A DNA stretch of 48,969 bases from Gemmatimonadota bacterium (GCA_016179225.1 JACORV010000012.1:1-48969), one strand, 5' to 3'; shown: positions 2,527-20,113, counted from the stretch's first letter. Translations and numbers: made by a program. Notes: generated by a model not told the origin, from the letters alone.

Positions 2527-2537
2527 TGGCGTGATCC

Positions 2538-3824: not shown

Positions 3825-4762
3825 AGGCGACGGCCAGGGCGGTGGTGCGCGTCGGTACGCGCGCCAGCGCGCTCGCCCGCCGGCAGGCGGAGTTGGTCGT
3901 CGCGGCCCTGTGCGCCGCCCACCCCGACCTCGCTTGCGAGATCGCGACCGTCACCACGCGCGGCGACCGCGACCTCGAGTCTCCCCTTCCCGCCATCGGT
4001 GGCAAAGGCGTCTTCACGGCCGAGCTCGAGGAGGCGCTCCGCCGCGGCACGGTCACCATCGCGGTCCACAGCCTGAAAGACCTTCCGACCGAAGAGCCGC
4101 CGGGCTTGGTCGTCGCCGCGGTGCTCGAACGAGCCGACCCCCGCGACGTGCTGGTCTCGCGCTCGCGAGGTACGCTGGCGGAGCTCCCGACTGCGCCGGC
4201 CGTCGGAACCAGCAGCCTGCGGCGCGCGGCGCAGGTGCTGGCGCTCAGGCCGGACGCGAGGCTGCTCCCGCTGCGCGGCAACGTGGAGACGCGGGTGCGC
4301 AAGGCCATGGACGGCCTAGGCCCGTACGACGCGATCGTGCTCGCCGCGGCGGGGCTCGAGCGGCTCGGCCTCGCGGACGTCGCCGCCGAGCGCTTCGCGC
4401 CCGATCGCTTCCTTCCCGCGCCTGGCCAGGGCGCGGTCGCGATCGAGTGCCGCCGCACCGAGCCGTTGCTCGATTTGCTCCGGGCCGTGAGCCACCCGCC
4501 GACCTGGTCCGCAGTCACCGCGGAGCGCGCGTTCCTCTCCGGTCTCGGCGCCGGTTGCACCGCGCCGGTCGCCGCGTTCGGCCGGGAGGAAAGCGGCCGC
4601 CTAATCCTCGACGGGCTGGTGGCTTCGCAGGACGGCAGACGCGTCGTGCGGGTGCGGGCCCAGGGTGACCCGTCCGAGCCGGCCGTCCTCGGCGCGCGCC
4701 TCGCGGCGGACGCGCGCGAGGCTGGGGCCGAAGCGCTGCTCGCGGCGGGAGGCGGCTCGTGA
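3821..4762 (+). CDS. hemC: Hydroxymethylbilane synthase
   Basis: GTRASALA, GGKGVFTAELE, AVHSLKD, GTSSLRR, LRGNVETR, GAGCTAP. Confidence 0.97.
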   Translation: MKATARAVVRVGTRASALARRQAELVVAALCAAHPDLACEIATVTTRGDRDLESPLPAIGGKGVFTAELEEALRRGTVTIAVHSLKDLPTEEPPGLVVAAVLERADPRDVLVSRSRGTLAELPTAPAVGTSSLRRAAQVLALRPDARLLPLRGNVETRVRKAMDGLGPYDAIVLAAAGLERLGLADVAAERFAPDRFLPAPGQGAVAIECRRTEPLLDLLRAVSHPPTWSAVTAERAFLSGLGAGCTAPVAAFGREESGRLILDGLVASQDGRRVVRVRAQGDPSEPAVLGARLAADAREAGAEALLAAGGGS

Positions 4763-5826
4763 CCGGCGCGCCGCGCGAACGGCGCCAGCTCGTCCGCTTC
4801 GCTTTCTACCGGCTCGATCCCGTTTTCCGGCGCCTGCCCGCCGCCGAGCAGCGGCAGCACAAGGAGGAGTTCGCCGCCACCATCTCCGCCTTCGCCGAGC
4901 GCGTGCTGTTGCGGTCGTACAGCCTGGTGGGCGTGCGCGGCGACGCCGACTTCATGCTCTGGCAGGTCGCCGAGGAGCTGGACACGCTGCAGGCCCTCCA
5001 GACGGCGCTCAACCGGACGCGACTCGGCGCCTACCTCGCCGTGCCGTACAGCTACCTGGCCATGACGCGCCGCTCCATCTACGAGATCCGGGACGCGGAG
5101 CCGGGACACACGGGGCTGGTGATCCGGCCGAGCCAGGCGCGCTACCTGTTCGTCTATCCCTTCGTGAAGACGCGCGAGTGGTACGCGCTGCCGATGGGCG
5201 AGCGCCAGGCGATGATGGAGGAGCACATCGCGGTCGGCCGGCGCTTCCCCAGCATTCGGCTCAACACGACGTACTCGTACGGACTCGACGACCAGGAGTT
5301 CGTCGTGGCGTTCGAGGGCGACGACCCCGCGGAGTTCCTGGACCTCGTGATGGCGCTGCGCGAGAGCCAGGCCTCGCGCTACACGCTCCGGGACACCCCG
5401 ACGTTCAGCTGCATCCAGATGCCCATCGCCGACATGCTGGACGCGTTGGGGGGCGAGGCGATGGGCGCCGATGCCGCGCCCGCGCCCCGGGCCGACGGCT
5501 TGGTCGCGGCCTGCGCGCTCCGGGACCTGCCGCCGGGGGCGAGCCGTCGCGTGGTCGCGCGGGGCGAGGTGGTGGCGGTCTTCAACGTCGGCGGCCGCGT
5601 CTTCGCGATCGGCAACCGATGCACCCACGCCCGCGCGTCGCTCGCCGACGGGACCGTGGACGCGGCGACCGCCGTAGTGACGTGCCCCTGGCATGCCGGT
5701 CGCTTCGAGCTCGCGACCGGCCGGGCGATCGACGGCCCTCCCAAGGCGGCGGTGCCGGTCTACCCCGTGCGGATCGAGGACGGCACGGTGCTGCTCGGTG
5801 TGCCAGAGATGACCGTTGCGGACTGA
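4759..5826 (+). CDS. chdC: Coproheme decarboxylase (ChdC/HemQ, chlorite dismutase superfamily) fused to a C-terminal Rieske [2Fe-2S] ferredoxin domain
   Basis: YPFVK..WY and EEH (catalytic Tyr, Lys, proximal His), YGLDDQEFVVAFE, and location in the hem operon beside hemH and hemY. C-terminal CTH...CPWH Rieske motif. Confidence 0.85.
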   Translation: MTGAPRERRQLVRFAFYRLDPVFRRLPAAEQRQHKEEFAATISAFAERVLLRSYSLVGVRGDADFMLWQVAEELDTLQALQTALNRTRLGAYLAVPYSYLAMTRRSIYEIRDAEPGHTGLVIRPSQARYLFVYPFVKTREWYALPMGERQAMMEEHIAVGRRFPSIRLNTTYSYGLDDQEFVVAFEGDDPAEFLDLVMALRESQASRYTLRDTPTFSCIQMPIADMLDALGGEAMGADAAPAPRADGLVAACALRDLPPGASRRVVARGEVVAVFNVGGRVFAIGNRCTHARASLADGTVDAATAVVTCPWHAGRFELATGRAIDGPPKAAVPVYPVRIEDGTVLLGVPEMTVAD

Positions 5827-6742
5827 CACCACGGCCGTGCTCCTCATGGCGTACGGCGGCCCCGACTCGCTCGACGACGTGGCCCCCTACCTCGCCGACG
5901 TGCGCGGCGGCCGCCCGACGCCGCAGCGCTTGGTCGAAGAAGTCCGCTCGCGCTACGCCGCGATCGGCGGCCGTTCGCCGCTGCTCGCCCGGACCCGCGA
6001 GCAGGCCGCCGCGCTCGCCACGAGGCTCGGCCCCGCTTGGCGCACCGCGGTCGGCATGCGGCACTGGAAGCCGTACATCGCTGAGGCGCTGGACGCACTC
6101 GCAGCGGAAGGCGTGCGGCGCGTGATCGCCTTGCCGATGGCGCCGCACTTTTCCGACCTGAGCGGCGGGGCGTATCGTCGCGCCTGCGAGACCGCGCCGG
6201 CGGTGCGGCGGGGAGACGTGCAGCTGGCGTTCGTGCCCGGATGGAGCGCGCACCCGGGATTCATCGACGCGGTGGCGGAGCGAGCGGGCGCCGCCCTGGA
6301 CGCGCTCGGGGACCGCCGCGCCACCACCCTGGTCGTCTTCTCTGCCCACAGCCTCCCGGAACGGATCATCGATTCCGGCGACCCGTACGCTGAGAACTTC
6401 GCCACCAGTGTCGCCCGCGTGGCCGAGCGGCTCTGCCTCGCCGGCTTCCGCCTCGCGTTTCAGAGCGCCGGTGCCACGCGCGACCGCTGGCTCGGTCCCG
6501 ACGTGGCCGTGGTCATGGGCGACGCGTCGGCGGCGGGCTACGAAGGGGTGCTCGTCGTTCCGATCGGGTTCGTGTGCGACAACGTCGAGATCCTCTACGA
6601 CGTGGACGTGGCCTATCGCGGGCACGCCGTGCGCCTGGGACTCGACTTTTCCCGATCGGAATCCTTGAACGCGAGCCCGCGGCTCGTCGCAACGCTCGCG
6701 GACCTGACGCACGTGGCCGCTCGCGAGGCCGGCTGGTCGTGA
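5816..6742 (+). CDS. hemH: Ferrochelatase (probably coproporphyrin ferrochelatase CpfC)
   Basis: LLMAYGGP, IGGRSPL, MRHWKPYI, FSAHSLP, FQS...WLGP, PIGFVCDNVEILYD. Confidence 0.93.
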   Translation: MRTDTTAVLLMAYGGPDSLDDVAPYLADVRGGRPTPQRLVEEVRSRYAAIGGRSPLLARTREQAAALATRLGPAWRTAVGMRHWKPYIAEALDALAAEGVRRVIALPMAPHFSDLSGGAYRRACETAPAVRRGDVQLAFVPGWSAHPGFIDAVAERAGAALDALGDRRATTLVVFSAHSLPERIIDSGDPYAENFATSVARVAERLCLAGFRLAFQSAGATRDRWLGPDVAVVMGDASAAGYEGVLVVPIGFVCDNVEILYDVDVAYRGHAVRLGLDFSRSESLNASPRLVATLADLTHVAAREAGWS

Positions 6743-7824
6743 GTGCGGTCCTCGTGGTGGGCGGCGGCATCACCGGTCTCGTCGCGGCGCACGCCGCGAC
6801 GCGTGACGGTCACGACGTGACGCTGCTCGAGGCGAGCTCGCGACTCGGCGGGCTGATCCTCACCGAGCGCGTGGACGGGTTCCTCGTCGAAGCAGGCCCC
6901 GACGCCTTTCTCGCCGGCCGGCCCGAGATCCCGGCGCTGGTGGGCGAGCTCGGGCTCGCCGGTGACCTCCTCGCGCAGCGGGTCCGCACGATTCTCCTGG
7001 GCGATGGTGGCGAGTTGGTTCCTCTGGCGCCGGGCGCGGCGGCGGCGGTGCTCGAGCTCGCTACGAGCGAGCGCGAGGCGGCCGCCGGGTTCACGACCCT
7101 GCGCGGCGGGCTGGGCTCGTTGATCGCCGCGCTCGCCGCGCGACTCGGCGATCGCGTCCGGCTTGGAGCGCGGGCTCGCGCGGTGGTGCGCGACGGGGCT
7201 CAACTCTTGGTGGACGTCGAAGGTAGTCCGGGCCTCGTCGCCGACGCAGTCGTCCTCGCCCTGCCCGGCCATGCCGCCGCGCCGCTGCTCCGGGAGATGG
7301 ACCCGCTTCTCGCCACGATGCTCGGCGCGCTCGAGTACCGCTCATCGAACACCGTCGCCCTCGCCTACGATGCCAGGGACGTGGGACACGCGCTGGACGC
7401 CTCCGGCATGGTGGTGCCGCGCGAGGCGGCGCGGGCGGTCGTGGCGTGCACCTTCGCCTCGTCGAAGTTCGAGGGCCGCGCGCCGCAGGGCGGGGTGCTG
7501 CTGCGCGCGTTCGTGGGGCGCTGCGGCGCCCGAGAAGTGGAGGAGGAAAGCGACGAACGGATCGTGGATGTGGCGCGCGCGGACCTCGAGCCGCTGTTGC
7601 GCATCACGCGCGCGCCGCGTTGGTCGCGCGTGTACCGCTGGCCCCGCGCGCTCCCCCGGCCCGACGCGCGGGACGGCGAGCCGCGCCACCTGATCCGCGA
7701 GCGCGCGCTCAGGGCCGGCGTCGTGCTGGCCGGATCGGCGGAGGGCGGAGCCGGGCTCTCCGACGGCGTGGCGAGCGGCCGGCGCGCCGCGACCGCCATT
7801 CGCGAGGTAGCGGTCGCGTCGTGA
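6739..7824 (+). CDS. hemY: HemY/CgoX-type (copro/proto)porphyrinogen oxidase, short form (~361 aa)
   Basis: GTG 6739 overlaps the hemH stop. Motifs VVGGGITGL, LEASSRLGG, EAGPDAF, FTTLRGG, SSKFEGRAP, RWPRALP. Confidence 0.85.
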   Translation: MSAVLVVGGGITGLVAAHAATRDGHDVTLLEASSRLGGLILTERVDGFLVEAGPDAFLAGRPEIPALVGELGLAGDLLAQRVRTILLGDGGELVPLAPGAAAAVLELATSEREAAAGFTTLRGGLGSLIAALAARLGDRVRLGARARAVVRDGAQLLVDVEGSPGLVADAVVLALPGHAAAPLLREMDPLLATMLGALEYRSSNTVALAYDARDVGHALDASGMVVPREAARAVVACTFASSKFEGRAPQGGVLLRAFVGRCGAREVEEESDERIVDVARADLEPLLRITRAPRWSRVYRWPRALPRPDARDGEPRHLIRERALRAGVVLAGSAEGGAGLSDGVASGRRAATAIREVAVAS

Positions 7825-8696
7825 CCAGGCGTATCCGCACCTACCGCGAGCTTTCGGGCGAGGACCGCTCCGGCATCGTGGCCCAGGTGGTCGCGCAGCA
7901 GGACCGGGTCCGCGAACGTCTCCGCGCGGTACGGCACACCGTCGCCGTCATGAGCGGCAAGGGGGGCGTGGGCAAGAGCTTCGTCACCGCGCTCCTCGCG
8001 GCGGCGCTGGCGGAGGCCGGCAAGCGTGTGGGCGTGCTGGATGCCGATCTTCAAGGTCCGACGGCGGCGAGAATGCTGGGCGTCGGGCGGGAGCCGCTCG
8101 CGGTGCGCGACGACGACGTCGTGCCCCCCGAAGGCGCGCGGGGCGTGCGCGTGATCTCCAGCGACCTCCTCCTAGCCGAGGGCGCGCCGCTCAAGTGGAA
8201 GGAGCCGGGCGAGGCGCGGTTCGTCTGGCGCGGCACACTCGAGGCGGGGATGCTGCGCGAGTTCCTGGCCGACGTGGCCTGGGGCGAGCTCGACCTCCTG
8301 CTGGTGGACCTCCCGCCGGGGACCGACCGCCTCACCACCCTGATGGAGCTTCTTCCCGGGCTCACCGGCGTGCTGGCCGTAACCATCCCGTCCGACGCCT
8401 CGCTGCGGGCCGTGGCCCGCTCGCTCCAGCTGGCGCGCGAGGGCCGCATCCGCATTCTCGGCATCGTGGAGAACATGGCCAACTACCGCTGCGCGCACTG
8501 CGGCGCTCAGGGCCCGCTCATGACCGGCGACGCCGCCGATAGGCTCGCCGCCGAGGCCGCGGCCCCGGTGCTCGCGCGCCTCCCGTTCGATCCGGCGGTG
8601 CAGGCGGCCGTGGACGGGGGCCGGATCGGCGAGCCGGCCGACCCGGCCTTCGCAGCGCTCGCCGCGGCCCTGCTCGCTCGGGTGGAGGGCGCATGA
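7821..8696 (+). CDS. mrp: Mrp/NBP35/ApbC Fe-S cluster carrier ATPase
   Basis: SGKGGVGKS, LDADLQGP, WGELDLLLVDLPPGT, GIVENM..CAHC. GTG start overlaps the hemY stop. Confidence 0.9.
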   Translation: MTRRIRTYRELSGEDRSGIVAQVVAQQDRVRERLRAVRHTVAVMSGKGGVGKSFVTALLAAALAEAGKRVGVLDADLQGPTAARMLGVGREPLAVRDDDVVPPEGARGVRVISSDLLLAEGAPLKWKEPGEARFVWRGTLEAGMLREFLADVAWGELDLLLVDLPPGTDRLTTLMELLPGLTGVLAVTIPSDASLRAVARSLQLAREGRIRILGIVENMANYRCAHCGAQGPLMTGDAADRLAAEAAAPVLARLPFDPAVQAAVDGGRIGEPADPAFAALAAALLARVEGA

Positions 8697-9166
8697 AGTT
8701 CCTCTGCGTCGACTGCGATCAGCGCATGGTCTTCGAGGAGCGGCAGCTCCCGGGCGATGGCACACTGGCGGTCGCGTTTCGGTGCCCGGCCTGCGGGCGC
8801 ACCGTTGCCCTGTTGACGAATCCCTGGGAGACGCAGCTCGTCTCGTCGCTGGGCGTGATCATCGGCGGCCGCACGGTGCCGGAGCAGCCGATGGAGCTGA
8901 CCCGCACCACCACCGAAGGAGGGCGCGAGGGCGCCTTCGCCGACGCCGAGCCCGGTGAGGAGCGGCGCGATTCCACGCCCGGCGGCGCGCCAGCCCGTGT
9001 CACCTGGGACGACCGGGCGACGCAGCGCCTCGCGAACGTGCCGTCGTTCGTGCGCGGGATGGTGAAGCGCATCTACGCCGACTACGCGCTCGAGCGCGGT
9101 ATCGCGGTCATCACGCCCGAGGTGATGGACGCCGCCCGCAGCGACCTCGGCCTCGAGGGGATGTAA
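8693..9166 (+). CDS. Zn-ribbon (CxxC...CxxC) protein with C-terminal PCP_red-like domain
   Basis: CVDC and CPAC pairs. C-terminus WDDRATQRLANVPSFVRGMVKRIYADYALERGIAVITPEVMDAA resembles the BchB/ChlB C-terminal (PCP_red) pattern. Confidence 0.75.
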   Translation: MKFLCVDCDQRMVFEERQLPGDGTLAVAFRCPACGRTVALLTNPWETQLVSSLGVIIGGRTVPEQPMELTRTTTEGGREGAFADAEPGEERRDSTPGGAPARVTWDDRATQRLANVPSFVRGMVKRIYADYALERGIAVITPEVMDAARSDLGLEGM

Positions 9167-9169
9167 TCG

Positions 9170-9505
9170 GTGGCCGACGTCGAGCGGCGGCAGGAGCCGG
9201 AGACCGCGGGCGCCTCCGCCGGACACCGGGACGGCACGCCTCCCGCGGAGCCCTCGACGCGGACGGCCGAATTCGAGGAGCGCCAGGTCGGCGACCTCCG
9301 GATCCGCATCGACCGGACGCTGTGCGTCGGCTTCGCCGACTGCGTGAAGGCCGCGCCCGACGGCTTCGTGGTCGCCGAGGACGGCATCACGGTCTTCGTG
9401 AACCCGGAGCGCGTCGATCGCGCGACGCTCGTCGAAGCGTGCGACGTCTGCCCCGTGGACGCGATCACGGTGTGGGATCACGCCGGCAATCAGATCGTGC
9501 CCTGA
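9170..9505 (+). CDS. Monocluster ferredoxin ([3Fe-4S]/[4Fe-4S])
   Basis: IDRTLCVGFADCVKAAPDGF...ACDVCPVDAI. Confidence 0.85.
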   Translation: MADVERRQEPETAGASAGHRDGTPPAEPSTRTAEFEERQVGDLRIRIDRTLCVGFADCVKAAPDGFVVAEDGITVFVNPERVDRATLVEACDVCPVDAITVWDHAGNQIVP

Positions 9506-9512
9506 CCAAGAC

Positions 9513-10280
9513 GTGCGCCCGCTTTCCGGCCGCCGCATCGTGGTGACCCGCCCTGCCGATCGGGCCGCGCGCCTGATCGAGCGCCTGCGCGCCCGCGGCG
9601 CGGAGCCGATCCCGTTCCCCACCATCCGCTTGACGCCCGCCGATCCCGCGCCCCTCGACGCGGCGATCGCCGCACTCGACACGTTCGACTGGGTGATTTT
9701 CACCAGTCGGGAGGGCGTCGACGCGTTCTTCCGGCGGCTGGATGCGCGCGGCGGGATGCCCGCCGCGCTAGCAGGCTCCGGAGGACGGGCATCGTCGGCG
9801 GGCGTGGGGAGGCTCGGCATCGCGGCGATCGGCCCGGCGACCGCCCAGGCGCTCCGCGACCATCGCGTCGAGCCCGCCCTCGTCCCGCGCGAATACGTCG
9901 CCGAGGCCCTCCTCGAAGCGCTCGGCGACGTGCGTGGGCTGCGGATGCTCCTCCCGCGCGCCGACATCGCCCGCAAGGCGCTGGCCGACGGCCTGCGCGC
10001 GCGGGGCGCCGAGGTCGTCGAGGTCGCCGCCTACCGCACCGTGGCGAGCGGCGCGCCGCCCCCCGCGCTGGAGGGCGTGGACGCGATTACCTTCACCAGC
10101 TCCTCGACGGTGCGGCACTTCGTGGAGAGCGGCGCGGACTTTGGCCGCGCCAAGATCGTGTGCATCGGCCCGGTCACCGCGGCCACGGCGCGCGAGCTCG
10201 GCCTGCCCGTTCACGCCGTGGCCAGCGAGTACACTGAAGACGGCCTCATCGAGGCGCTGGAAGGAGTGTTCACCGCGTGA
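9513..10280 (+). CDS. hemD: Uroporphyrinogen-III synthase
   Basis: [38 protein letters not shown]. Confidence 0.95.
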
Positions 10281-11260
10281 GCAGGTTCCCCGCGACCCGT
10301 CTCCGCCGCTGGCGCCGCACCCCCGCCCTGCGCGCGATGACGCGCGAGGCGACGGTGGCCGCGAGCGACTTCGTCTATCCCCTCTTCGTCACCGCCGGCG
10401 CGACCGTCCGTCGGGAGGTGCCCAGCATGCCCGGCGTGCACCAGCTTTCCGCGGACGGCGAGCTGGAGCGCGAGATCGCGGAGGTCGCCGACCTCGGGAT
10501 CGGCGCCGTCATCCTCTTCGGCCTTCCGGCCACCAAGGACGGCCAGGCCACCCAGGCTTACGCCGCGGGCGCGCCGGTCCAGCGCGCCATCGGTCTCATC
10601 AAGAAGGCGGCGCCGGAGCTGGTGGTCATCACCGACGTCTGCCTCTGCGAGTACACCGACCACGGCCACTGCGGCATCATCAGGGAAGGTGTGGTCGACA
10701 ACGACTCCACCCTCGACCTCCTCGGCAAGGTGGCCGTGAGCCACGTCGCAGCCGGCGCGGACGTCGTGGCGCCCAGCGGGATGATGGACGGGATGGTGGG
10801 CGCGATCCGTGCCGCCCTCGACGCGGCGGGCCACGCCGACACCGCGATCCTGAGCTACGCGGTGAAATACGCCAGCGCCTTCTATGGCCCCTTTCGCGAC
10901 GCCGCCCAGAGTCCGCCCGCCTTCGGCGACCGGAAGAGCCACCAGATGGATCCCGCGAACGTGCGTGAAGCGCTGCGCGAGTGCGAGCTCGACGTCGGCG
11001 AAGGCGCGGACGCGCTGATGGTGAAGCCGGCCCTGCCCTACCTCGACGTCGTGCGCGCGGTGCGCGAGAGGTTCCCGCTCCCGCTCGCCGCGTACAACGT
11101 GAGCGGCGAGTACGCGATGGTGAAGGCGGCGGCCGCGAAAGGCTGGCTCGACGAGCGCGCGTGCGTGCTCGAGCTGCTCACCGGCATCCGGCGCGCCGGC
11201 GCGGACCTGATTCTGACGTACCACGCCAAAGACGCCGCGCGCTGGCTGCGGGAAGCGTGA
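10277..11260 (+). CDS. hemB: Porphobilinogen synthase (Zn-binding type)
   Basis: [52 protein letters not shown]. Confidence 0.98.
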
Positions 11261-11268
11261 CGCCGGCC
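11221..11268 (+). repeat. 48-bp direct repeat, copy 1 (3' end of hemB and its stop codon)
   Basis: CCACGCCAAAGACGCCGCGCGCTGGCTGCGGGAAGCGTGACGCCGGCC, identical to 14282-14329. Confidence 0.95.
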
Positions 11269-11326
11269 AGGCCGCGCCAGGTCGCGCACGCCGCCGCGCG
11301 CCGCAGTTCCGCTCGGGGCTCAAGCC

Positions 11327-14263
11327 ATGGCTGAGCTTCTGGATCAGGTCCGAGCCGTGCTCGCCGACCGTTACGCGGTCGAGCGAGAGCTGGGGCAGGG
11401 CGGCATGGCCACCGTCTACCTGGCCGCCGATCGCAAGCACCACCGCTCAGTCGCCATCAAGGTCCTGAATCCGGAGCTGGGCACGATCCTGGGCCCCGAG
11501 CGGTTCCTGCGCGAGATCGAGATCGCCGCCGGGCTCACCCATCCGCACATCCTGCCTCTGCTCGATTCCGGGGAGTCCGGGGGCTTGCTTTACTACGTGA
11601 TGCCCTTCGTCGAAGGGGAATCGCTGCGGGATCGGCTGAGTCGCGAGAAACAGCTCCCCGTGGCCGAGAGTGTGCGGATCGCGCGGGAGGTCGCGGCCGC
11701 GCTCGCGTACGCGCACAGCCGCGACGTCGTGCATCGCGACATCAAGCCGGAAAACGTGCTCCTCTCGGGCGGGGAGGCCGTGGTGGCGGATTTCGGGATC
11801 GCCCGTGCGGTGACCGCGGCCGGCGGTCAACGGCTGACCGATACCGGCGTCGTCATCGGGACGCCGGCATACATGAGCCCGGAGCAAGCGACGGCCGAAC
11901 GCCAGCTCGACGGACGCAGCGACACCTACAGCCTGGGCTGCGTGTTGTACGAGATGTTGGCCGGCCAGCCACCGTTCACCGGCCCCACGGTGGAGAGCGT
12001 CGTGCACCAGCACCTGGCCGCCGACGCGCCGGCGGTCACGGCCATACGCTCGACGGTGCCGGCCGCCGTCGCGGCGGCCATTGGGCGGGCGCTGGCCAAG
12101 GCGCCGGCGGACCGATTCGCAACCGCCGCCCAGTTCGCCGAGGCGCTCGCGTCGGCTGCTGAGGGGACCGTCCCGCCGTTGGTGGTGCGGCCACGCCGCG
12201 CCAGGTGGTTGAAGCTCGGGGCCGGCCTGGGGCTGGCGGCCGCCGCCGCCGTTGCGGTGCTGCTGGGGCGGAATCGGTCCCCCGTCATCGCGGCGGCGTC
12301 GGTGGTCGCGGTCGTGCCGTTCGCTCCCACAACGCCCGACACCGGCCTCACGCGCCTCGGTCGCGATCTCGTCGTCACGCTCAGTGCCAACCTCGACGGC
12401 GTCGGCGAGATCCGCACCGTAGATGCCCTGACGATCCTCGCGCACACGGGGGATCCGAACCAGAGCTTCACGCGAGATGACGCCGCTGCGCTGGCGCGGC
12501 GGCTCGGGGCGAGCAGTGTGGTTCAGGGCAGCCTGCTCCGCGCCGGCGCGGCGGTCCGCCTGGAGCTCGGCCTGTTTCAGACGGATCGCGATGCCGAGGT
12601 GGCGCATGCGTCCGTGGTGGCGTCGCCTGGCGACTTTAACGCCCTGACGGATTCGGTCACCTGGGCGCTGCTCCGGCAGATCTGGCGCGCACGTGAGCCG
12701 CCGACACCGAGCCTGAGCGCCGTGACGACCCGCTCGCTGACGTCGCTGCGGGCGTTCCTCGAGGGCGAGCGGGCCAGCGTGGATGGACGCTGGCCCGAGG
12801 CCGAAGCGGCCTTCGCCCGTGCCATCGAGGCGGATTCCGCCTTCTGGCTCGCCTACTGGCGATATGCTTACGCGCGCAACTGGAATCTCCTGGAACCGGA
12901 CACCGCGATCGTCAGCGCCTACCGACGGCATCGCGACGCGCTGCCCGAACGTGAGCGTCTGCTCGTGGAAGCGGAGCTGGCCGACAGCGCCAGCGCCCGC
13001 CTGGGGCTTCTCGAGGAAGTCACGCGTCGTTTCCCGGACTATTGGCCGGGGTGGATGGAGTACGCCGACTGGCTGGTGCACTTCGCGCCCCTGCTGGAGC
13101 CGGTGAGCGAGAGGGCCCGCGCGGCGCTGGAGCGAACCATCGCCCTGAACCCCCGCTTGGTGCCCGCATGGACGCACCTGGCCTGGATGGCGGTGATGGA
13201 GGGCGACAGCGTTGCGCTGTCACGGGCCGTCACAACCCTCCAGCGGCTCGGTGCGCCGACGACTGGTCACACGCTTGCTCAATACGAAAGTCCCCGCGTT
13301 TTCCGCGTGCTGGACCGACTGCTGCGCAACGGCGGCGCCGCCGACCCTTCCCTGGTGGATTCCGCCGTCGCCGCGATGACCGCGAACGACGCCCTATGGC
13401 TCTGGTTCGGGTTCCCCGCAGCCCAGATCAAAGTGAGTCGCCAGGTGCAGCGCCGCGGCGTCCCGGCGCCCGAGTCGGCGTTCCAACTGTGGTTGATCGC
13501 GATGTCGTGGGCGGCCCGGGGCGCGTGGGACTCTGCGGCGGTCGCGCTGGACGACTACGTCCGCGCCGACCCCGGGGGGCGGGCTGCGCTCCGCGCGTAC
13601 GGTCTCGCCGTGGCCGGCGTGTGGCTCGGCGCGCTGAACGAAGCCGCGGCGGTGCACTTCCGGAGCGCGGCCGTGCGAGACACCGCGCACGAGAGCCCCG
13701 CCGCGCACTCCGAGCGCGCCTGGCTGGACGGGTTCATGGCCGCCACCCGCGGCGATCCGGCACGGGTCGCCGCCGCGCGGGCAGCGCTCCGCCGATCCAC
13801 GGACTCGGCCGCGGCCCTGCTCGAGGGCTCGCTGAGCACATTCGAGACGACGATGTCCGGCGCGCCAGCCGCTGCGGGCCGGGCGCTCGCCGCCCTGGAG
13901 CGCGAACGGGCAGAGCGCACACTGGCGCTCACCGATCCCGACGGGCTGGGCGACAACCATCCCTTCGTGAGGGCGCTCGATCGCCTGGCCGCAAGCCGCT
14001 GGCTCCTGGCGGCGGGCGACACCGCCACGGCGCTCGCGCTGCTGGCGTGGCACGACGAGGTGCGTATCCCCATGGCCGCCTTTGTGAGCAAGGTGCTCTC
14101 GGGGCTCGTGCATCTCGAGCTGGCGCGCATCGAGGCCGCACGCGGTCGCGTCGCAGCGGCGAGGGTCCACTACGAACAGTTTCTTCGGCGCTACGACATG
14201 CCGGTTGCCGCGCACCGGCATCTGGTGACCGACGCGCGCCGCGCGCTCGGCGAGATGCGGTGA
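11327..14263 (+). CDS. Hanks-type Ser/Thr protein kinase with a hydrophobic segment, TolB-N-like and TPR-like C-terminal regions
   Basis: LGQGGMATVY, VAIK, HRDIKPEN, DFG, GTPAYMSPEQ, D.YSLGCVLYEML, followed by a hydrophobic segment and helical repeats. Confidence 0.93.
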   Translation: MAELLDQVRAVLADRYAVERELGQGGMATVYLAADRKHHRSVAIKVLNPELGTILGPERFLREIEIAAGLTHPHILPLLDSGESGGLLYYVMPFVEGESLRDRLSREKQLPVAESVRIAREVAAALAYAHSRDVVHRDIKPENVLLSGGEAVVADFGIARAVTAAGGQRLTDTGVVIGTPAYMSPEQATAERQLDGRSDTYSLGCVLYEMLAGQPPFTGPTVESVVHQHLAADAPAVTAIRSTVPAAVAAAIGRALAKAPADRFATAAQFAEALASAAEGTVPPLVVRPRRARWLKLGAGLGLAAAAAVAVLLGRNRSPVIAAASVVAVVPFAPTTPDTGLTRLGRDLVVTLSANLDGVGEIRTVDALTILAHTGDPNQSFTRDDAAALARRLGASSVVQGSLLRAGAAVRLELGLFQTDRDAEVAHASVVASPGDFNALTDSVTWALLRQIWRAREPPTPSLSAVTTRSLTSLRAFLEGERASVDGRWPEAEAAFARAIEADSAFWLAYWRYAYARNWNLLEPDTAIVSAYRRHRDALPERERLLVEAELADSASARLGLLEEVTRRFPDYWPGWMEYADWLVHFAPLLEPVSERARAALERTIALNPRLVPAWTHLAWMAVMEGDSVALSRAVTTLQRLGAPTTGHTLAQYESPRVFRVLDRLLRNGGAADPSLVDSAVAAMTANDALWLWFGFPAAQIKVSRQVQRRGVPAPESAFQLWLIAMSWAARGAWDSAAVALDDYVRADPGGRAALRAYGLAVAGVWLGALNEAAAVHFRSAAVRDTAHESPAAHSERAWLDGFMAATRGDPARVAAARAALRRSTDSAAALLEGSLSTFETTMSGAPAAAGRALAALERERAERTLALTDPDGLGDNHPFVRALDRLAASRWLLAAGDTATALALLAWHDEVRIPMAAFVSKVLSGLVHLELARIEAARGRVAAARVHYEQFLRRYDMPVAAHRHLVTDARRALGEMR

Positions 14264-14281
14264 ATCGGTGTTGACAGCTTG

Positions 14282-14329
14282 CCACGCCAAAGACGCCGCG
14301 CGCTGGCTGCGGGAAGCGTGACGCCGGCC
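14282..14329 (+). repeat. 48-bp direct repeat, copy 2 (supplies the hemE start codon)
   Basis: Identical to 11221-11268; contains the hemE GTG at 14318. Confidence 0.95.
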
Positions 14330-15355
14330 GAACCGCGCCTGCTCGCGGCCTGCCGCCGCCGGCCCGTAGACAGGATTCCCGTCTGGTTCATGCGCCAGGC
14401 AGGGCGGTACCTCGCCGAGTACCGCGCGGTGCGCGCCAAGCACTCGATCCTCGAGATCTGCCACACGCCCGAGCTCGCGGCCGAAGTCACGCTGCAACCC
14501 GTCGAGCACCTGGGCGTAGACGCCGCGATCCTCTTCGCCGACATTCTGCTCCCCGTCGAGCCCCTCGGCCTCGGTCTCTCGTTCTCGGAAGGCGCCGGCC
14601 CCCTGATCGAGCGGCCCATCCGCGCGCCCGAGGACGTGGCCGCGCTTCCCGACGTGGACCCGCCGCGCGATCTCGGCTTCGTGGTCGAGGCCGTCGCCGC
14701 CTGCAAGCACGCGCTCGCCCAGCGCGCGCCCGGCACACCGCTCATCGGGTTCGCGGGCGCTCCGTTCACGCTCGCCAGCTACGTCATCGAAGGCGGCAGC
14801 TCGCGCAACTTCACCCTGACGAAGCGGTTCATGTACCAGCACCCCGAGGCCTGGCACGAACTGCTCCGCCGGCTCGCCGACCTGGTGGGCGGACTCCTCG
14901 GCGCACAGGCGCGGGCCGGCGCCGACGTCGTGCAGCTGTTCGACTCGTGGGTCGGATGCCTGGCGCCGGAGGACTACCGGCGCTTCGTGCTCCCGCACAG
15001 CCGCCGCGCCATCGAGCTCGCGCAGGCGGCCGGCGTGCCGGTCATCCACTTCGGCACGGATACGGCCACGCTGCTCGAGCTCCTGGTCGAGGCCGGCGGC
15101 GAGGTGATGGGCGTGGACTGGCGCATCCCGATCGACCAAGCGTGGGCGCGCACCGGCGACCGCGCCGTGCAAGGCAACCTGGACCCCGCTGCGCTCTTCG
15201 CGCCCCGCCCCGAGCTCGAGACCCGCGTCCGCGACATCCTCCAGCGGGTGGGGGGGCGCCCGGGCTTCATCTTCAACCTCGGCCACGGCATCCTGCCGGG
15301 CACGCCCGTCGACAACGTCCGCGCGGTCGTTGACCTGGTGCACGCCTTCGCGTGA
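14318..15355 (+). CDS. hemE: Uroporphyrinogen decarboxylase
   Basis: [56 protein letters not shown]. Confidence 0.97.
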
Positions 15356-16641
15356 GCACCGAGCGCTCCGCGGCCCTGTTCAGAGAAGCGCTGGCGCTCC
15401 TGCCCGGCGGGGTGGACAGCCCCGTCCGCGCGTTCAAGAGCGTCGGCGGGACGCCACGCTTCATCGAGCGGGGCGAGGGCGCCTGGCTCGTGGACGCGGA
15501 CGGCAACCGCTACGTGGACTACGTCCTCGCGTGGGGGCCGCTCATCCTCGGCCACGCGCCGCCCGCTGTGGTAGAGGCGGTGGAGCGGGTCCTGCGGCGC
15601 GGCACGGCGTTCGGCGCGCCCACCGCGCTCGAGACTGAGCTCGCGAGCCGCATCGTCGCGACGTTTCCGTCCATTCAGATGGTGCGGTTCGTGAATTCGG
15701 GCACCGAAGCCGCCATGAGCGCCTTGCGTCTTGCCCGCGCGTTCACCGGTCGCGCGAAAGTGATCAAGTTCGAGGGATGCTACCACGGCCACGCCGATGC
15801 CTTCCTCGTCCAGGCCGGCTCGGGTGTCGCGACCCTCGGCTTTCCCGACTCCCCGGGCGTGCCTCCAGCCACGGCCGCCGACACCCTCGTCGCCCCGTTC
15901 AACGACCTCGTCGCCGCGCGACGGCTCTTCGAACAGCATCCGAACCAGATCGCCGCGATCATCCTAGAGCCCGTGGTGGGCAACATGGGCGTGGTGCCGC
16001 CGGCGGACGGCTTCCTGGCCGGCCTGCGCGACCTCACCACCACTGCGGGCGCGCTCCTCGTCTTCGACGAGGTGATGACCGGCTGGCGCGTTCACCCCGG
16101 GGGCGCGCAGGGCCTCTACGGCGTCGCGCCCGACCTCACCTGCCTCGGCAAGGTCATCGGGGGCGGGCTCCCGGTCGGCGCGTACGGCGGGCGACGCGAC
16201 ATCATGGAGATGGTCGCGCCCGCCGGACCCGTGTACCAGGCGGGCACGCTGTCCGGCAATCCGCTCGCGATGGCCGCCGGCATCGCCACCCTCGACGCCC
16301 TCGCCACGCCGGGGGTGTGGGAGCGCGCCGAGCAAGCCGCCTCAGCCGCCGAGACCACCCTGCGCGAAACCGCACAGCGCGACGGAGCCGCGCTCATGGT
16401 GCAACGTGTCGGCACCATGTTCACCCCATTCTTCACGGATCGTCCGGTGAGTGACTTCGCCGCCGCGAAAACCGCCGACCGCGAGCGCTATGCCGTGTTC
16501 TTCCACCGGATGCTTGAGGCCGGCGTCTATCTGCCGCCCTCGCCGTTCGAGGCCGCCTTCGCGTCGACCGTTCACGGCGAGACCGAAATCGCGGCCTTCG
16601 CCGAAGCCGCTCGGCGCGCCCTGTCAGGGCTAGGGCACTGA
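15352..16641 (+). CDS. hemL: Glutamate-1-semialdehyde 2,1-aminomutase
   Basis: [54 protein letters not shown]. Confidence 0.97.
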
Positions 16642-16652
16642 GCCGGCGCGCG

Positions 16653-16700
16653 TCCTCACCTCCTCACTTCCTCGCCACATCACCACATCACCACATCACC
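16653..16700 (+). repeat. Six 8-bp tandem units (TCCTCACC-like x3, ACATCACC x3)
   Basis: TCCTCACC TCCTCACT TCCTCGCC ACATCACC ACATCACC ACATCACC, read directly. Confidence 0.85.
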
Positions 16701-16713
16701 GTCCTTCGAGGTG

Positions 16714-16743
16714 TTGACACCGTTCGCTTGCGAACCCTATACT
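16714..16743 (+). promoter_or_regulatory. Near-consensus sigma70 promoter for the USP-to-oxidase operon
   Basis: TTGACA at 16714-16719, an 18-bp spacer, and TATACT at 16738-16743, about 50 bp upstream of ATG 16793. Confidence 0.7.
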
Positions 16744-16792
16744 CGACTTTGATTCTCCCGTACATAATCGAAACACCTGACGCGGGCGTGCG

Positions 16793-18781
16793 ATGTATCA
16801 CGAGATCTTCGTACCCGTCGATAATTCCCAGCCTTCGGACTGGGCGGTTGATCGTGCGATCGAGCTGTGTCGGCGCTCGGGAGGCCGTATCACCGGGAAT
16901 CACGTGTATGCCGCCCGCTTGCACGACGTGCGGTTCCGGCAGCTCGAGACCGGCTTGCCCGCCCGATTCCAGACCCCCGAGGAGATCAGGAAGCAGCGCA
17001 AGATCCACGACAAGCTCATCGAGAAAGGCCTCCAGCTCATCGCCGACAGCTTCCTCGACCAGCTCGGGAAGAGGTGCGAAGCCGCGGGCGTGAAGCTCGC
17101 GCGGCAGCTCCTCGAGGGGATCAACTACGAAGAGATCGTGAACGAGGTGAACCGCGGCCAGGGCCGGCTTCCGGGGCTGATCGGCTTCGATCCCAACCGT
17201 GCGGCGGGTTACGACGGCGGGGAGAAAGTCCGCAGCGACGTGAGGCTCGGCGAGGACGGCCGCATCGTGGCGGAGGACGAGGACCAGGCCGCGCGGCTGG
17301 TCGGGACGTCGCGACGGATATACGACCTCGTCGCGATCGGCGCGCACGGGCTGGGGCGCCAGGCGTACTCCCAGCTGGGCGGTGTGGTCGCCCGGGCGCT
17401 GCGCGGCGTCGAGAAGGACATGCTGATCGTGCGCGACGACCGCCCGTTCGAGGGCGGCCGGTTCATGGTCTGCGTGGACGGCTCGTCGTACGGCTACCAG
17501 GCGATGCGCGCGGCGCTCGAGCTCGCCGACGCCTTCGGCGGATCCCTGTACGTGTGCAGCGCCTTCGACGTGGAGTACCACCACGTCGTCTTCCACAACA
17601 TCAAGGACGTGCTCTCCGTCCAGGCCTCGAAGGTCTTCAAGTTCGAGGAACAGGAGGAGCTGCACAACAACATCATCGACAAGGGGCTCCTGAAGCTCTG
17701 CCAGGCCAACATCAAGCGGGCCGAGGCCATGGCGCAGCAGTTCCCGGACGTCCCGGTCAAGACGCAGATCCTCATCGGCAAGCCGTTCCAGGTGATCATG
17801 CAGTGGGCCGCGGAGATCGAGCCGTCGCTGCTGGTCATCGCGCGGCACGGGGCGCACCGCATCGAGGGCACGGACCTGGGCTCGCAGGCCGAGAACCTGG
17901 TCCGCATCGCCCCCTGCAATACGCTGCTGGTCGGCACGACGGGGATCCGGCCCGAGGACATCCCGTGGATCGAGGAGGACGGTCAGGCGGGGTTGCCGTG
18001 GGCGCCGGAGGCCGAGGTCCGGATTCTGCGCGTGCCACCCTTTGCCCAGGGGATCGCGCGTCGCGCGGTGGAGGAGTACGTCCTGGAGCGCACCAACGGC
18101 GAGCCGCAGACGGTCACGAACCGGTGGCTGGACGAGGCGATCCGGAAGCTCCTTCCCACGCACATGCAGCTCATCATGGGCATCGGCACGGCCGAGGAGA
18201 TCGCGCTCGCCGAAGTGAAGGCCACCGAGCAGATGACGAAGACGCTGGTGCTCGGCAGCGACGCGGACGTCGAGCCCGCCGGAGCCACGATCGAGACGAA
18301 GTGCCCGGTACCGCCGTATCACACCGCGACGCGACCGCGGACGGCCGCCGACCCGATCGTGTGGACCGAGGAGGCGTGGCAGCGGCTTCAGCTCGTGCCG
18401 CTCATCGCACGGCCGCTGGCCCGGAACACCGTCGAGCGCTTCGCGCGCCACCACGATATCTGGCGCGTGACGACCGGCGTGATGGACGACAACAAGCAGG
18501 CCATGATCGAAGCCGACGAGTTCGACATCGACACGATGATGGTCATGTTCACGGAGCTCCGTGCCAAGCAGATCCGCGCCGAGGCCGAAGGCCCCGACGC
18601 GCTCTCGCCCGAGATGCGCCGCTTCATCGAGGAGGCGAAGGCCCAGGGGATCACCCGCTGCCCCATCCGGGACATCGAGGAGCAGCTGGGGAAGTGCCCG
18701 GTGGACTTCAAGACGGTGAAGCCGGAGGACGCGAAGAAAGCGGTGGAGAAGTTGCTGGAAAGCATGCCCGGGGACGACTAG
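16793..18781 (+). CDS. Tandem universal stress protein with two PCP_red-like domains and three Cys-Pro motifs
   Basis: USP1 IFVPVDNS...DLVAIGAHG...LGGV; USP2 MVCVDGS...LLVIARHG...LGSQAENLVRIAPC; WAPEAEVRILRVPPF and WTEEAWQRLQLVPLIAR; KCPV, RCPI and KCPV. Confidence 0.85.
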   Translation: MYHEIFVPVDNSQPSDWAVDRAIELCRRSGGRITGNHVYAARLHDVRFRQLETGLPARFQTPEEIRKQRKIHDKLIEKGLQLIADSFLDQLGKRCEAAGVKLARQLLEGINYEEIVNEVNRGQGRLPGLIGFDPNRAAGYDGGEKVRSDVRLGEDGRIVAEDEDQAARLVGTSRRIYDLVAIGAHGLGRQAYSQLGGVVARALRGVEKDMLIVRDDRPFEGGRFMVCVDGSSYGYQAMRAALELADAFGGSLYVCSAFDVEYHHVVFHNIKDVLSVQASKVFKFEEQEELHNNIIDKGLLKLCQANIKRAEAMAQQFPDVPVKTQILIGKPFQVIMQWAAEIEPSLLVIARHGAHRIEGTDLGSQAENLVRIAPCNTLLVGTTGIRPEDIPWIEEDGQAGLPWAPEAEVRILRVPPFAQGIARRAVEEYVLERTNGEPQTVTNRWLDEAIRKLLPTHMQLIMGIGTAEEIALAEVKATEQMTKTLVLGSDADVEPAGATIETKCPVPPYHTATRPRTAADPIVWTEEAWQRLQLVPLIARPLARNTVERFARHHDIWRVTTGVMDDNKQAMIEADEFDIDTMMVMFTELRAKQIRAEAEGPDALSPEMRRFIEEAKAQGITRCPIRDIEEQLGKCPVDFKTVKPEDAKKAVEKLLESMPGDD

Positions 18782-18787
18782 CTACTC

Positions 18788-20113
18788 ATGGCGGAGATGG
18801 CGACGAGCGTACTTCTCGCCGCGGAGCGGGAAGCGCCCGCGGGGGAGTGTCTCCCGCACGTTGTCGCGTGGAACCTCACGCGGCGCTGCAATCTCCGCTG
18901 CTCCCATTGCTACATCTCCGCCGGCCCGTCCGAGTCCGCGGCCGGCGAGCTCGACACGGCGGCGTGCCGCCGCGTCATCGAGCAGCTGCTGGCGGTGAAC
19001 CCAGCCCCGATGCTGATCCTGTCGGGCGGCGAGCCGCTGCTCAGGGATGACCTCCCCGCGATTGCGTCGTACGCCGCCCGGCGCGGCGCCACCGTCGTGG
19101 TGGGCACCAACGGGACGCTCCTCACCGAGGAGCGCATCGTCGGGCTCATGGAGGCGGGCGTCACCGGGGTGGCGGTGAGTGTGGACTCGCTGCGGCCCCG
19201 CTATCACGACAGTTTCCGCCGCAAGACCGACGCGCTGGCCGACACGATGGGCGCGATCGAGCGGCTCCGGACCCGCCGGCTCGACTTCATCGTGCAGACG
19301 ACCGCCACCCGCGGGAACAAGAGCGAGGTGCCGGCGCTGATCGAGTGGGCCGCCGCACAGGGCGCCGTGGCGTTCAACCTCTACTTCCTGGTGCCGACGG
19401 GGCGCGGCGGCCAGCTCACGGATCTGACGGCGTCCGAGTACGAGGCGCTCCTGGGCGTGCTCGCCGATTACGAGCGCCGGTACCGCGGTGCCATGATGGT
19501 GCGCGCCAAGTGCGCGCCGCACTTCATCCGGCGCGTGTACGAGGAGTCCCCGGGCTCGCCCGTCCTCAACTACCAGACCCGCTGCCCCTGCGGGATCCAG
19601 TACTGCCGGATCACGCCCGAGGGCGCGATCACCCCCTGCCCCTACCTGCCCACGATCGCAGGAGACCTGCGCACCCAGACCTTCGGCGAGATCTGGAATG
19701 GCTCGCCGGTCTTCGCCGACCTCAGGCGGCGGGAGCTGGGCGGCAAGTGCGGGCGCTGCGAGTACCGCCTCATCTGCGGGGGATGCCGGGCGCGCGCCTT
19801 CGCCTCAACCGGCGATTACCTCGCGGCCGACCCGTCGTGCGTCTACGAGCCCCCGGGCGACCGGCCGCTGATCGAGCGGCCCGCGGTGGCGTACGGCACG
19901 CCTGTGGCGCCGACGCTGGCCTGGTCGCCCGAAGCGGAAGAGCGCATGCGCCGCATCCCGTCCTTCGTGCGCGGCGTGGTGATGAGGCGCGTGGAGGACT
20001 TCGCGCGCGCCCGCGGTCTCGGCACCGTCACGCCGGAGCTGCTGAGCGAGATCCGCGGCGCCATGCCAATCGACTTCTCCCGGCGCAAACCCTTCTTCGT
20101 GCGCGATGACTGA
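18788..20113 (+). CDS. Radical SAM/SPASM protein (AhbD/NirJ-like) with C-terminal PCP_red-like domain
   Basis: WNLTRRCNLRCSHC, SGGEPL; SPASM Cys pattern CPCG..C...PC...KCGRCEY..CGGCRARA...DPSC; tail WSPEAEERMRRIPSFVR. Confidence 0.88.
   Translation: MAEMATSVLLAAEREAPAGECLPHVVAWNLTRRCNLRCSHCYISAGPSESAAGELDTAACRRVIEQLLAVNPAPMLILSGGEPLLRDDLPAIASYAARRGATVVVGTNGTLLTEERIVGLMEAGVTGVAVSVDSLRPRYHDSFRRKTDALADTMGAIERLRTRRLDFIVQTTATRGNKSEVPALIEWAAAQGAVAFNLYFLVPTGRGGQLTDLTASEYEALLGVLADYERRYRGAMMVRAKCAPHFIRRVYEESPGSPVLNYQTRCPCGIQYCRITPEGAITPCPYLPTIAGDLRTQTFGEIWNGSPVFADLRRRELGGKCGRCEYRLICGGCRARAFASTGDYLAADPSCVYEPPGDRPLIERPAVAYGTPVAPTLAWSPEAEERMRRIPSFVRGVVMRRVEDFARARGLGTVTPELLSEIRGAMPIDFSRRKPFFVRDD

Follow-up and report, generated by a model that had tools for sequence, protein, structure and literature searches.

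A Ser/Thr kinase gene inserted between two copies of the hemB/hemE junction in the haem operon of an uncultured Gemmatimonadota bacterium

When bacteria gain genes, the credit usually goes to mobile elements or to double crossovers within the core genes on either side. The direct target duplications left by transposons and insertion sequences are typically 2-15 bp long and come with a transposase or terminal inverted repeats, and phage 21 and e14 reportedly occupy the end of icd. Variable flanking duplications, microhomology and nearby templated patches characterise fork stalling and template switching and microhomology-mediated break-induced replication (FoSTeS/MMBIR), a model described mainly in eukaryotes. 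Cis-mobilizable elements (CIMEs) are presented, in the part of PMC5704250 on which we draw, as elements that have lost integration and transfer genes while keeping attL and attR. In engineered duplication-insertions (Dup-Ins) and in Campbell-type insertion-duplication, a contiguous target is present as two direct copies with the insert between them, and no enzyme encoded by an element is required; for Dup-Ins, the consulted portion of PMC5389514 describes stable small duplications, those of 100-210 bp being lost at background rate only. Here we describe a stretch of 48,969 nucleotides from a Gemmatimonadota bacterium (hereafter the window, meaning the whole stretch analysed), in which a Ser/Thr protein kinase gene lies between hemB and hemE, flanked by direct copies of the hemB/hemE junction. 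This is a natural insertion-duplication and one instance of a recurrent, little-described form of gene gain; the interpretation proposed from the sequence alone (the sequence-only reading), a recent insertion that suggests a route of kinase-family spread, is partly supported. Word-match searches of the literature found no papers linking Gemmatimonadota, protein kinase and heme biosynthesis and, within their limited reach, none describing such integrase-less, duplication-flanked insertions. For homology-facilitated illegitimate recombination with microhomology and duplication, the matches were unrelated.

The window is contig C145 of a 1.81-Mb metagenome-assembled genome (G000; 154 contigs, 72% complete). 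The public runs that contain its sequence are labelled groundwater metagenome, and the host is an uncultured bacterium. The features at the junction are as follows.

10277-11260, + strand: hemB, porphobilinogen synthase, intact (PF00490, E=2e-143; NF006762, 486.6 bits, cut-off 297)
11221-11268, + strand: repeat copy 1, perfect part, with the hemB 3' end, its TGA stop (11258-11260) and 8 nt past the stop
11269-11297, + strand: repeat copy 1, decayed part, a displaced hemE 5'-end piece that departs from 14330-14359 by 7 substitutions and one 1-nt indel
11298-14281, + strand: insert proper, 2984 bp, made up of a 29-nt leader, the kinase open reading frame (ORF) and an 18-nt trailer
11327-14263, + strand: gene between hemB and hemE for a Hanks-type Ser/Thr protein kinase of 978 aa (PF00069, E=2e-49, 168.6 bits, cut-off 31.7, residues 16-264)
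14282-14329, + strand: repeat copy 2, perfect part, with a 36-nt hemB-derived piece, the GTG start at 14318 and the first 12 nt of hemE
14318-15355, + strand: hemE, uroporphyrinogen decarboxylase, intact (TIGR01464, 402.7 bits, cut-off 302.95)

The perfect parts of the two copies are identical at 48 of 48 positions with a start-to-start spacing of 3061 bp, exactly as the sequence-only reading had it, and the 48-mer occurs nowhere else in the 1.81-Mb assembly. That reading let the similarity run on for another 10 bp with 3 mismatches. The similarity does continue, but further than claimed: the repeat search stretched the pair to 66 nt at 92% identity, and blastn aligned 11221-11297 with 14282-14359, a span of 78 nt at 89.7% identity that includes one gap. 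The 13 ungapped matches among 18 extension positions have P=3e-4, and the 22 of 30 obtained with one gap were equalled by none of 20000 random window pairs; the homology beyond 48 bp is weaker, but significant and not due to chance. Copy 1 contains the final 37 coding nucleotides of hemB together with its stop, supplied by the GTGA at 11257-11260, and the GTGA at 14318-14321 in copy 2 yields the GTG start of hemE, a division of roles that had been correctly noted. The N-terminus of this HemE aligns to the (V/M)...(F/L)LAAC of relatives, and the 36-nt hemB-derived piece of copy 2 is now the hemE upstream region. Together the two copies amount to one hemB/hemE junction, of the kind seen uninterrupted in the relative G016. 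The decayed hemE piece in copy 1 directly records that the duplicated target measured at least 78 bp.

The kinase is the only gene between the repeat copies, and a scan of 33 ORF translations from across the 49-kb window matched no integrase or transposase family, which bears out the sequence-only reading on this point. The GC content of the insert equals that of its flanks (0.717 versus 0.717), blastn of the insert ends against each other gave no inverted match, and blastn of the insert against G000 gave no second copy. No tRNA gene was found in the window. Three known kinds of insert were accordingly set aside. For a transposon or insertion sequence, the shared feature is the direct target duplication, but a transposase is lacking from both insert and window, the ends are not inverted, and the duplications, 48-78 bp here and 48-188 bp across the cases described below, are too long. 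An integrative element with its own integrase, be it a genomic island, a prophage, an integrative and conjugative element (ICE) or an integrative and mobilizable element (IME), was dismissed with the kinase as the only ORF inside the repeats. An integron gene cassette, in which a promoterless ORF would be followed by an attC site, was rejected on the 18 nt that separate stop and repeat and on the absence of any Rfam match at E<=0.1 in 9000-17000.

The empty form of the site was sought in related genomes. A hemB query matched 18 of 41, and 16 loci were examined; with this query, 16 of 24 genomes of the family, several of them at least 95% complete, gave no hemB. In all five relatives most similar in hemB (76-80%; G016, G015, G011, G017 and G008), which belong to two other genera of the family and have the order hemD-hemB-hemE-hemL, hemB overlaps hemE with no kinase between them. 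The junction of G016 is a GTGA overlap, the very form predicted by deleting the insert plus one repeat copy, and the other four carry ATGCCTGA at the overlap. The remaining 11 loci are arranged otherwise, for example as hemB-hemL or hemB-hemQ-hemE, and a kinase match was seen in 0 of the 16. By these comparisons the kinase segment is confirmed as an insertion that leaves hemB and hemE intact, as had been claimed. Here a single gene entered the tightest of spots, a 4-nt overlap in an essential operon, and the duplicated junction kept both neighbours intact.

Independent assemblies of the locus came from public runs, in the form of Logan contigs built with k=31, each of which stops 30 nt into a repeat copy. 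In X2, a second sample from the same study as X1, contigs are identical to the window on both sides of each copy. Contig depths in flanks and insert were 38-45 versus 33-39 in X1 and 10-16 versus 11-15 in X2; a sizeable kinase-free subpopulation is not indicated by these matching depths. A joint 11157->14381 in X1 was disregarded, since one of its sides has only 20 letters and it is incompatible with the repeat. A further sample from another study, X4, gave diverged contigs across 10300-15297, kinase included, with breaks at 11249/11251 and 14310/14312. Their differences from the window number 13/355, 5/245, 6/229 and 2/121 in hemB, 13/158 across 11251-11408, 192/2570 plus 12 gap positions in the kinase, and 31/986 in hemE, or 2-4% overall in hemB/hemE and 7.5% in the kinase. 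This lineage is absent from both the genome and the metagenome collections that were searched. Given that X4 also has the kinase between hemB and hemE, the insertion predates a lineage split of 2-8%; judged from the contigs, it is fixed in the sampled population and not very recent. The label 'recent' in the sequence-only reading therefore does not hold, and the distal 30 nt of copy 1 have already decayed. Among the 22 X4 differences listed inside the kinase ORF (358 further ones lie outside the listing), 15 fall at third codon positions, and the listed deletions at 13263-13285 total 12 nt, which points to purifying selection on the kinase.

The architecture is not confined to the haem operon. 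When G000 was searched without bias for direct repeats separated by 0.1-30 kb and the hits were tested for sharp edges, three more integrase-less inserts of 2.5-9.8 kb emerged, flanked by duplicated gene ends of 62-188 bp.

C128:15478-18829 (L150): map 3' end, 62-bp perfect repeat, 3228-bp insert with a family-less ORF and a PD40 propeller protein
C25:7757-10673 (L149): gatB 3' end, 188-bp repeat at 97.9%, 2541-bp insert with two ORFs
C109:700-10742 (L151): S9-peptidase 3' end, 127-bp repeat at 96%, 9789-bp insert with three genes, for a BTAD-PD40 protein, a TonB-receptor-like protein and a kinase-TPR protein

All three sites are empty in relatives from the same genus as G000: the downstream genes directly follow map in G003, G001 and G007, gatB abuts a phospholipase-C-like gene in G001, G003 and G002, and in G003 and G001 the S9 gene lies directly against the genes downstream. 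The cargo ORFs of these inserts gave no match to mobility families. Comparison of the repeats and insert ends of all four G000 cases, the hem locus included, found no shared motif, only chance matches of 9-13 nt, and no second genomic copy was found for any of the four inserts. The GC content of the C25 insert is 62%, versus 71% in its flanks. Targets where two genes overlap or abut occur at three of the four loci (hemB/hemE, gatB with a convergent gene, and S9 with a convergent ORF). At such targets the duplicate keeps both gene ends, which would explain why the repeat survives there.

The map and gatB loci retain further traces of their history. In both, the gene tail on the insert side is homologous to the displaced tail and in register with it, though diverged, and has its stop at the same position; gatB has gained six new final codons, and its stop is in register with that of the displaced tail. 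At map, the insert-side tail matches the native map downstream of G002, and the displaced tail resembles G001 and G003. At this locus the second repeat copy is preceded by 25 nt of adk, in frame and derived from 4.4 kb upstream, with the 3-nt microhomology TCC at the join; on sequence, such a patch is typical of illegitimate or template-switch joins. The region behind map looks like a rearrangement hot spot with a patchwork history. As a separate observation, an 87-nt piece at the right end of the map insert matches G002 in inverted orientation.

The C109 insert also offered two observations of its own. Over 3 kb, its TonB-receptor-like gene shares 80% DNA identity with 41646-44682 of the window. 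Directly behind its second repeat copy lies a short intergenic tandem run of 7-8-nt units; such runs, GTTGCAGA-like or GTTGAAGA-like, were seen at C109:10742-10800 and on C138, C82, C99 and C47.

Beyond G000, 80 loci (806 kb) from other Gemmatimonadota genomes contained three sharp repeat-flanked blocks.

L073: urate-oxidase end, 52-bp duplication (51/52) of the last 12 codons and stop, 2863 bp with a lone kinase-PD40 gene
L084:1761-7998: hemA 3' end, 180-bp duplicate, 5.9-kb block with a kinase-TPR gene
L076:7931-10307: 180-bp repeat, 2-kb block without a clear ORF

The L073 insert sits between the genes for OHCU decarboxylase and urate oxidase in a urate-catabolism cluster. In all seven relatives with both flanking genes in view, the site is empty, with the genes 308-451 nt apart and no kinase. 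Four occurrences of this architecture within 1.8 Mb, and its recurrence in a second genome of the phylum, suggest a general, little-studied route of gene gain.

The reading that we favour, with a probability of roughly 55%, is a duplicative insertion carried out by host recombination or repair without an element-encoded enzyme. An intact gene for a membrane-anchored Ser/Thr kinase would have entered the 4-nt hemB/hemE overlap, and at least 78 bp of the junction would have been duplicated as a by-product. Copy 1 would have retained the hemB end, and copy 2 the hemE start with its native upstream 36 nt. The outcome resembles a Dup-In, in that taking away the insert and one copy restores the original sequence; the difference is that a Dup-In is built by lambda Red through 40-nt homologies designed for the purpose, whereas the hem event is natural and its duplication measures only 48-78 bp. 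Three host routes may be considered: a DNA fragment that bridges sister chromosomes at two staggered positions, the equivalent in nature of an engineered Dup-In; a single crossover with a circularised fragment; or replicative template switching, as suggested by the adk patch at map. The last shares with FoSTeS/MMBIR the variable flanking duplication, the microhomology and the templated patch nearby, but under that model the cell should contain a source copy, and no such copy turned up for any of the four G000 inserts. After the event the kinase would be read through as a member of the operon, under purifying selection, and the useless hemE fragment in copy 1 would decay. The inner 48 bp would have stayed identical either through functional need for both halves or through conversion of the copies by each other; the repeat is probably retained because both neighbouring genes need it. 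In the portion of PMC5389514 cited above, loss of 100-210-bp Dup-Ins stays at the background rate, so a repeat of 48-78 bp can presumably persist and should rarely pop out. Rare pop-out fits the persistence of the repeat through the lineage split. The same process would have supplied other accessory genes of G000, and it would recur with the lone kinase of L073.

Several points weigh against this reading. The changes are unevenly spread, with none in the 36-nt hemB-derived piece of copy 2 versus 8 in the 29-nt hemE-derived piece of copy 1, an asymmetry that calls for an extra assumption. Possible candidates are selection on the hemE initiation region, gene conversion from the constrained hemB end, and error-prone synthesis during the event. 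No junction decisively singles out one of the three host routes, and the hem joints contain no templated patches, the 10-11-mer matches there being noise. A source copy of the kinase was found neither in G000 nor in the 80 genome loci nor in 12 metagenome loci, and no donor molecule for the hem insert was identified. A recombinase acting in trans is possible, with G000 only 72% complete. The k=31 contigs, which carry the same words for the occupied, empty and circular forms, fit a 1:1 mixture of episome and empty site as well as both repeat copies and the insert on one molecule. The 61-bp perfect repeat that would fit the X4 contig ends (11220-11280 = 14281-14341) is a deduction from those ends. 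The 80 loci from other genomes form a biased sample, chosen for holding kinase relatives. Finally, 16 of the 17 G000 kinase ORFs that are complete with flanks have no flanking repeat within 2 kb, the window kinase alone having one.

This last count also bears on the cargo. G000 has 26 kinase ORFs, and the sequence-only reading had proposed examining the paralogues for flanking direct repeats of 30-60 bp; none of the 16 others complete with flanks has a repeat within 2 kb. Two repeat matches near kinases on C45 were set aside as homology between tandem kinases. As for its idea of a route by which the kinase family spreads, two of the eight cargo genes in the four G000 inserts are kinases, compared with 26 in about 1700 genes (an estimate; binomial P ~0.006, on small numbers), and L073 carries a lone kinase. 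On the other side stand the single flanked paralogue and the mostly non-kinase nature of the other cargo. Kinases are recurrent cargo, and to that extent the idea is half borne out, but the route is not kinase-specific; it may help to explain the chromosomal spread of the large receptor-kinase families of Gemmatimonadota. We put forward a stronger form of the proposal as a conjecture, and would sooner bet against it than for it: that Gemmatimonadota routinely gain genes by enzyme-free, host-run insertion-duplication, even into the overlapping stop/start of essential genes; that the cargo would be enriched in receptor-kinase and beta-propeller families, whose expansion would have this process as a main engine; and that the junctions would evolve in concert.

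The reading that has to be weighed first against host-run duplication is that the hem insert, like a CIME, is what remains of a site-specific integrative element, or a satellite of one, without an integrase. The repeats would then be attL and attR, and a tyrosine or serine recombinase encoded elsewhere would have integrated the element and might mobilise it even now. The repeat does take in the 3' end of hemB and leaves the target gene intact around integrase-less cargo. A gene 3' end is duplicated in all four G000 cases and in L073, as at the att sites of elements that target gene ends, and the in-register tails with unchanged stop positions at map and gatB resemble surrogate gene ends. However, an integrase is present in none of the five inserts, and only two tyrosine-recombinase (PF00589) genes were detected in G000, both on other contigs; a search for Ku gave no match, which carries little weight given the incompleteness. 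The four repeats and insert ends have no motif, and hence no att core, in common. The hem insert consists of one host-like gene with the GC content of its flanks and has no signs of a decayed ICE or IME, its site is unoccupied in all five close relatives, and the adk patchwork at the map junction is unlike the product of a site-specific crossover. Moreover, the site is a stop/start overlap within an operon, so the repeat has two genes to rebuild instead of one. We consider such a remnant unlikely.

An origin in two steps is improbable. Either the junction first underwent a small tandem duplication, which an unrelated insertion interrupted afterwards, or hemE was disrupted by the kinase and a conspecific fragment starting 37 nt inside hemB then repaired the operon. 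Tandem duplications are common, and the number of family genomes without a hemB match suggests that a temporary loss of hemE might be survivable. Two rare events would nevertheless be needed at exactly one place, and the finding of the same architecture at four other loci favours a single mechanism that produces the duplication.

The converse history, in which an ancestral kinase at this place was deleted from the relatives when the repeats recombined, has a precedent in Haloquadratum, where repeat-bounded indels are interpreted as deletions in the part of PMC3119063 that we cite. At the hem locus, the repeats are duplicated pieces of hemB and hemE, so a duplicating insertion must have preceded any loss; two other genera have the empty site, in two junction forms, GTGA and ATGCCTGA; and no kinase relative stands beside hemB or hemE in the 80 genome loci or the 12 metagenome loci. 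We regard it as highly improbable. Equally so is an assembly artefact, or a 3-kb circle sharing the 48-bp word with an uninterrupted chromosome, for despite the fragmented genome and the k=31 contigs, which are shorter than the repeat and all break inside it, two samples give the same words at equal depth in flanks and insert, another study gives a diverged form, copy 1 runs into a decayed hemE fragment unlike copy 2 and so is no collapsed graph loop, and a 48-bp repeat is presumably shorter than ordinary reads.

The cargo itself is a Hanks-type Ser/Thr kinase, as judged from its score above the Pkinase threshold and from its catalytic motifs: the Gly-rich loop (GQGGMATV, residue 23), the VAIK lysine (VAIK, 42), the HRD catalytic loop (HRDIKPEN, 136), DFG (155) and SPE/APE (SPE, 184). 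A single hydrophobic segment spans residues 294-314, with a hydropathy peak of 2.04. For the C-terminal ~650 aa, a Pfam search with the C-terminal 698 aa gave sub-threshold TPR only, and TIGR04510 matched weakly at residues 359-586; we read this weakly TPR-like part as a putative outward-facing sensor. The kinase domain is closest to same-genome paralogues (66-75% protein and ~77% DNA identity), compared with at most 65% for kinases of other species among the 80 loci. The best full-length relative, at 48% protein identity, belongs to another genus (G019) and has no flanking repeat there. A metagenome search with the C-terminal 478 aa returned the 12 loci mentioned above, every one at 51% or less. 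Elsewhere in G000, two tandem kinase genes at C45:2286-4780 have a 140-bp perfect stretch within ~476 bp at 85%, which suggests gene conversion between kinase paralogues.

The surrounding region is a large co-oriented haem operon from hemA to hemL, as defined by profile searches of the ORF translations. Besides the genes given above, it comprises the following.

2535-3824, + strand: hemA
3794-4762, + strand: hemC
4669-5826, + strand: chlorite-dismutase-like/Rieske fusion
5816-6742, + strand: hemH
7446-8696, + strand: Mrp/ApbC-type ATPase (mrp)
8693-9166, + strand: small PCP_red-domain protein
9167-9505, + strand: ferredoxin
9513-10280, + strand: hemD, uroporphyrinogen-III synthase (PF02602, E=3.9e-62), with a 4-nt overlap (GTGA) with the hemB start
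15352-16641, + strand: hemL, glutamate-1-semialdehyde aminomutase (TIGR00713, 604.7 bits), where the co-oriented block ends

Three other junctions of this operon have 4-nt overlaps (mrp/PCP_red, ATGA at 8693; hemD/hemB, GTGA at 10277; hemE/hemL, GTGA at 15352), in line with the earlier statement that excision of the insert and one copy would restore an overlap of this size. A promoter scan of 9000-16700 found no promoter-like site, and a sigma-70-like promoter lies 3' of hemL at 16714-16743. TTGACA at 14271 was dropped as a promoter, the scan giving no matching -10. Three terminator-like hairpins were predicted in 9000-16700 (shuffled mean 2.2), all within the kinase ORF at 11566-11670, and the sole one on the + strand is weak (11566-11582). 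Since neither junction of the insert has a promoter-like or a + strand terminator-like site in the scanned interval, co-transcription of the kinase with the hem genes is likely. A sensor kinase under the transcriptional control of the haem operon would hint at a regulatory link between signalling and tetrapyrrole synthesis.

The haem operon seems patchy across the family and was perhaps transferred. The hem genes of G000 are closest to those of other genera of the family (hemB 76-80%) and far from those of same-genus G001 (65-68%), where the haem gene order is different (hemD-hemB-hemQ-hemE-hemH). The G000 housekeeping genes map and gatB are closest to those of G001, at 93% and 88%. Within the operon, the HemQ-type (chlorite-dismutase-like) domain encoded at 4669-5826 is fused to a Rieske 2Fe-2S domain. 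The PCP_red domain, a C-terminal piece of protochlorophyllide reductase subunit B, ends three proteins beside the haem genes: the small stand-alone protein at 8693-9166 and two fusions, at 16781-18781 and 18782-20113, one with a universal-stress domain and the other with a radical-SAM/SPASM enzyme.

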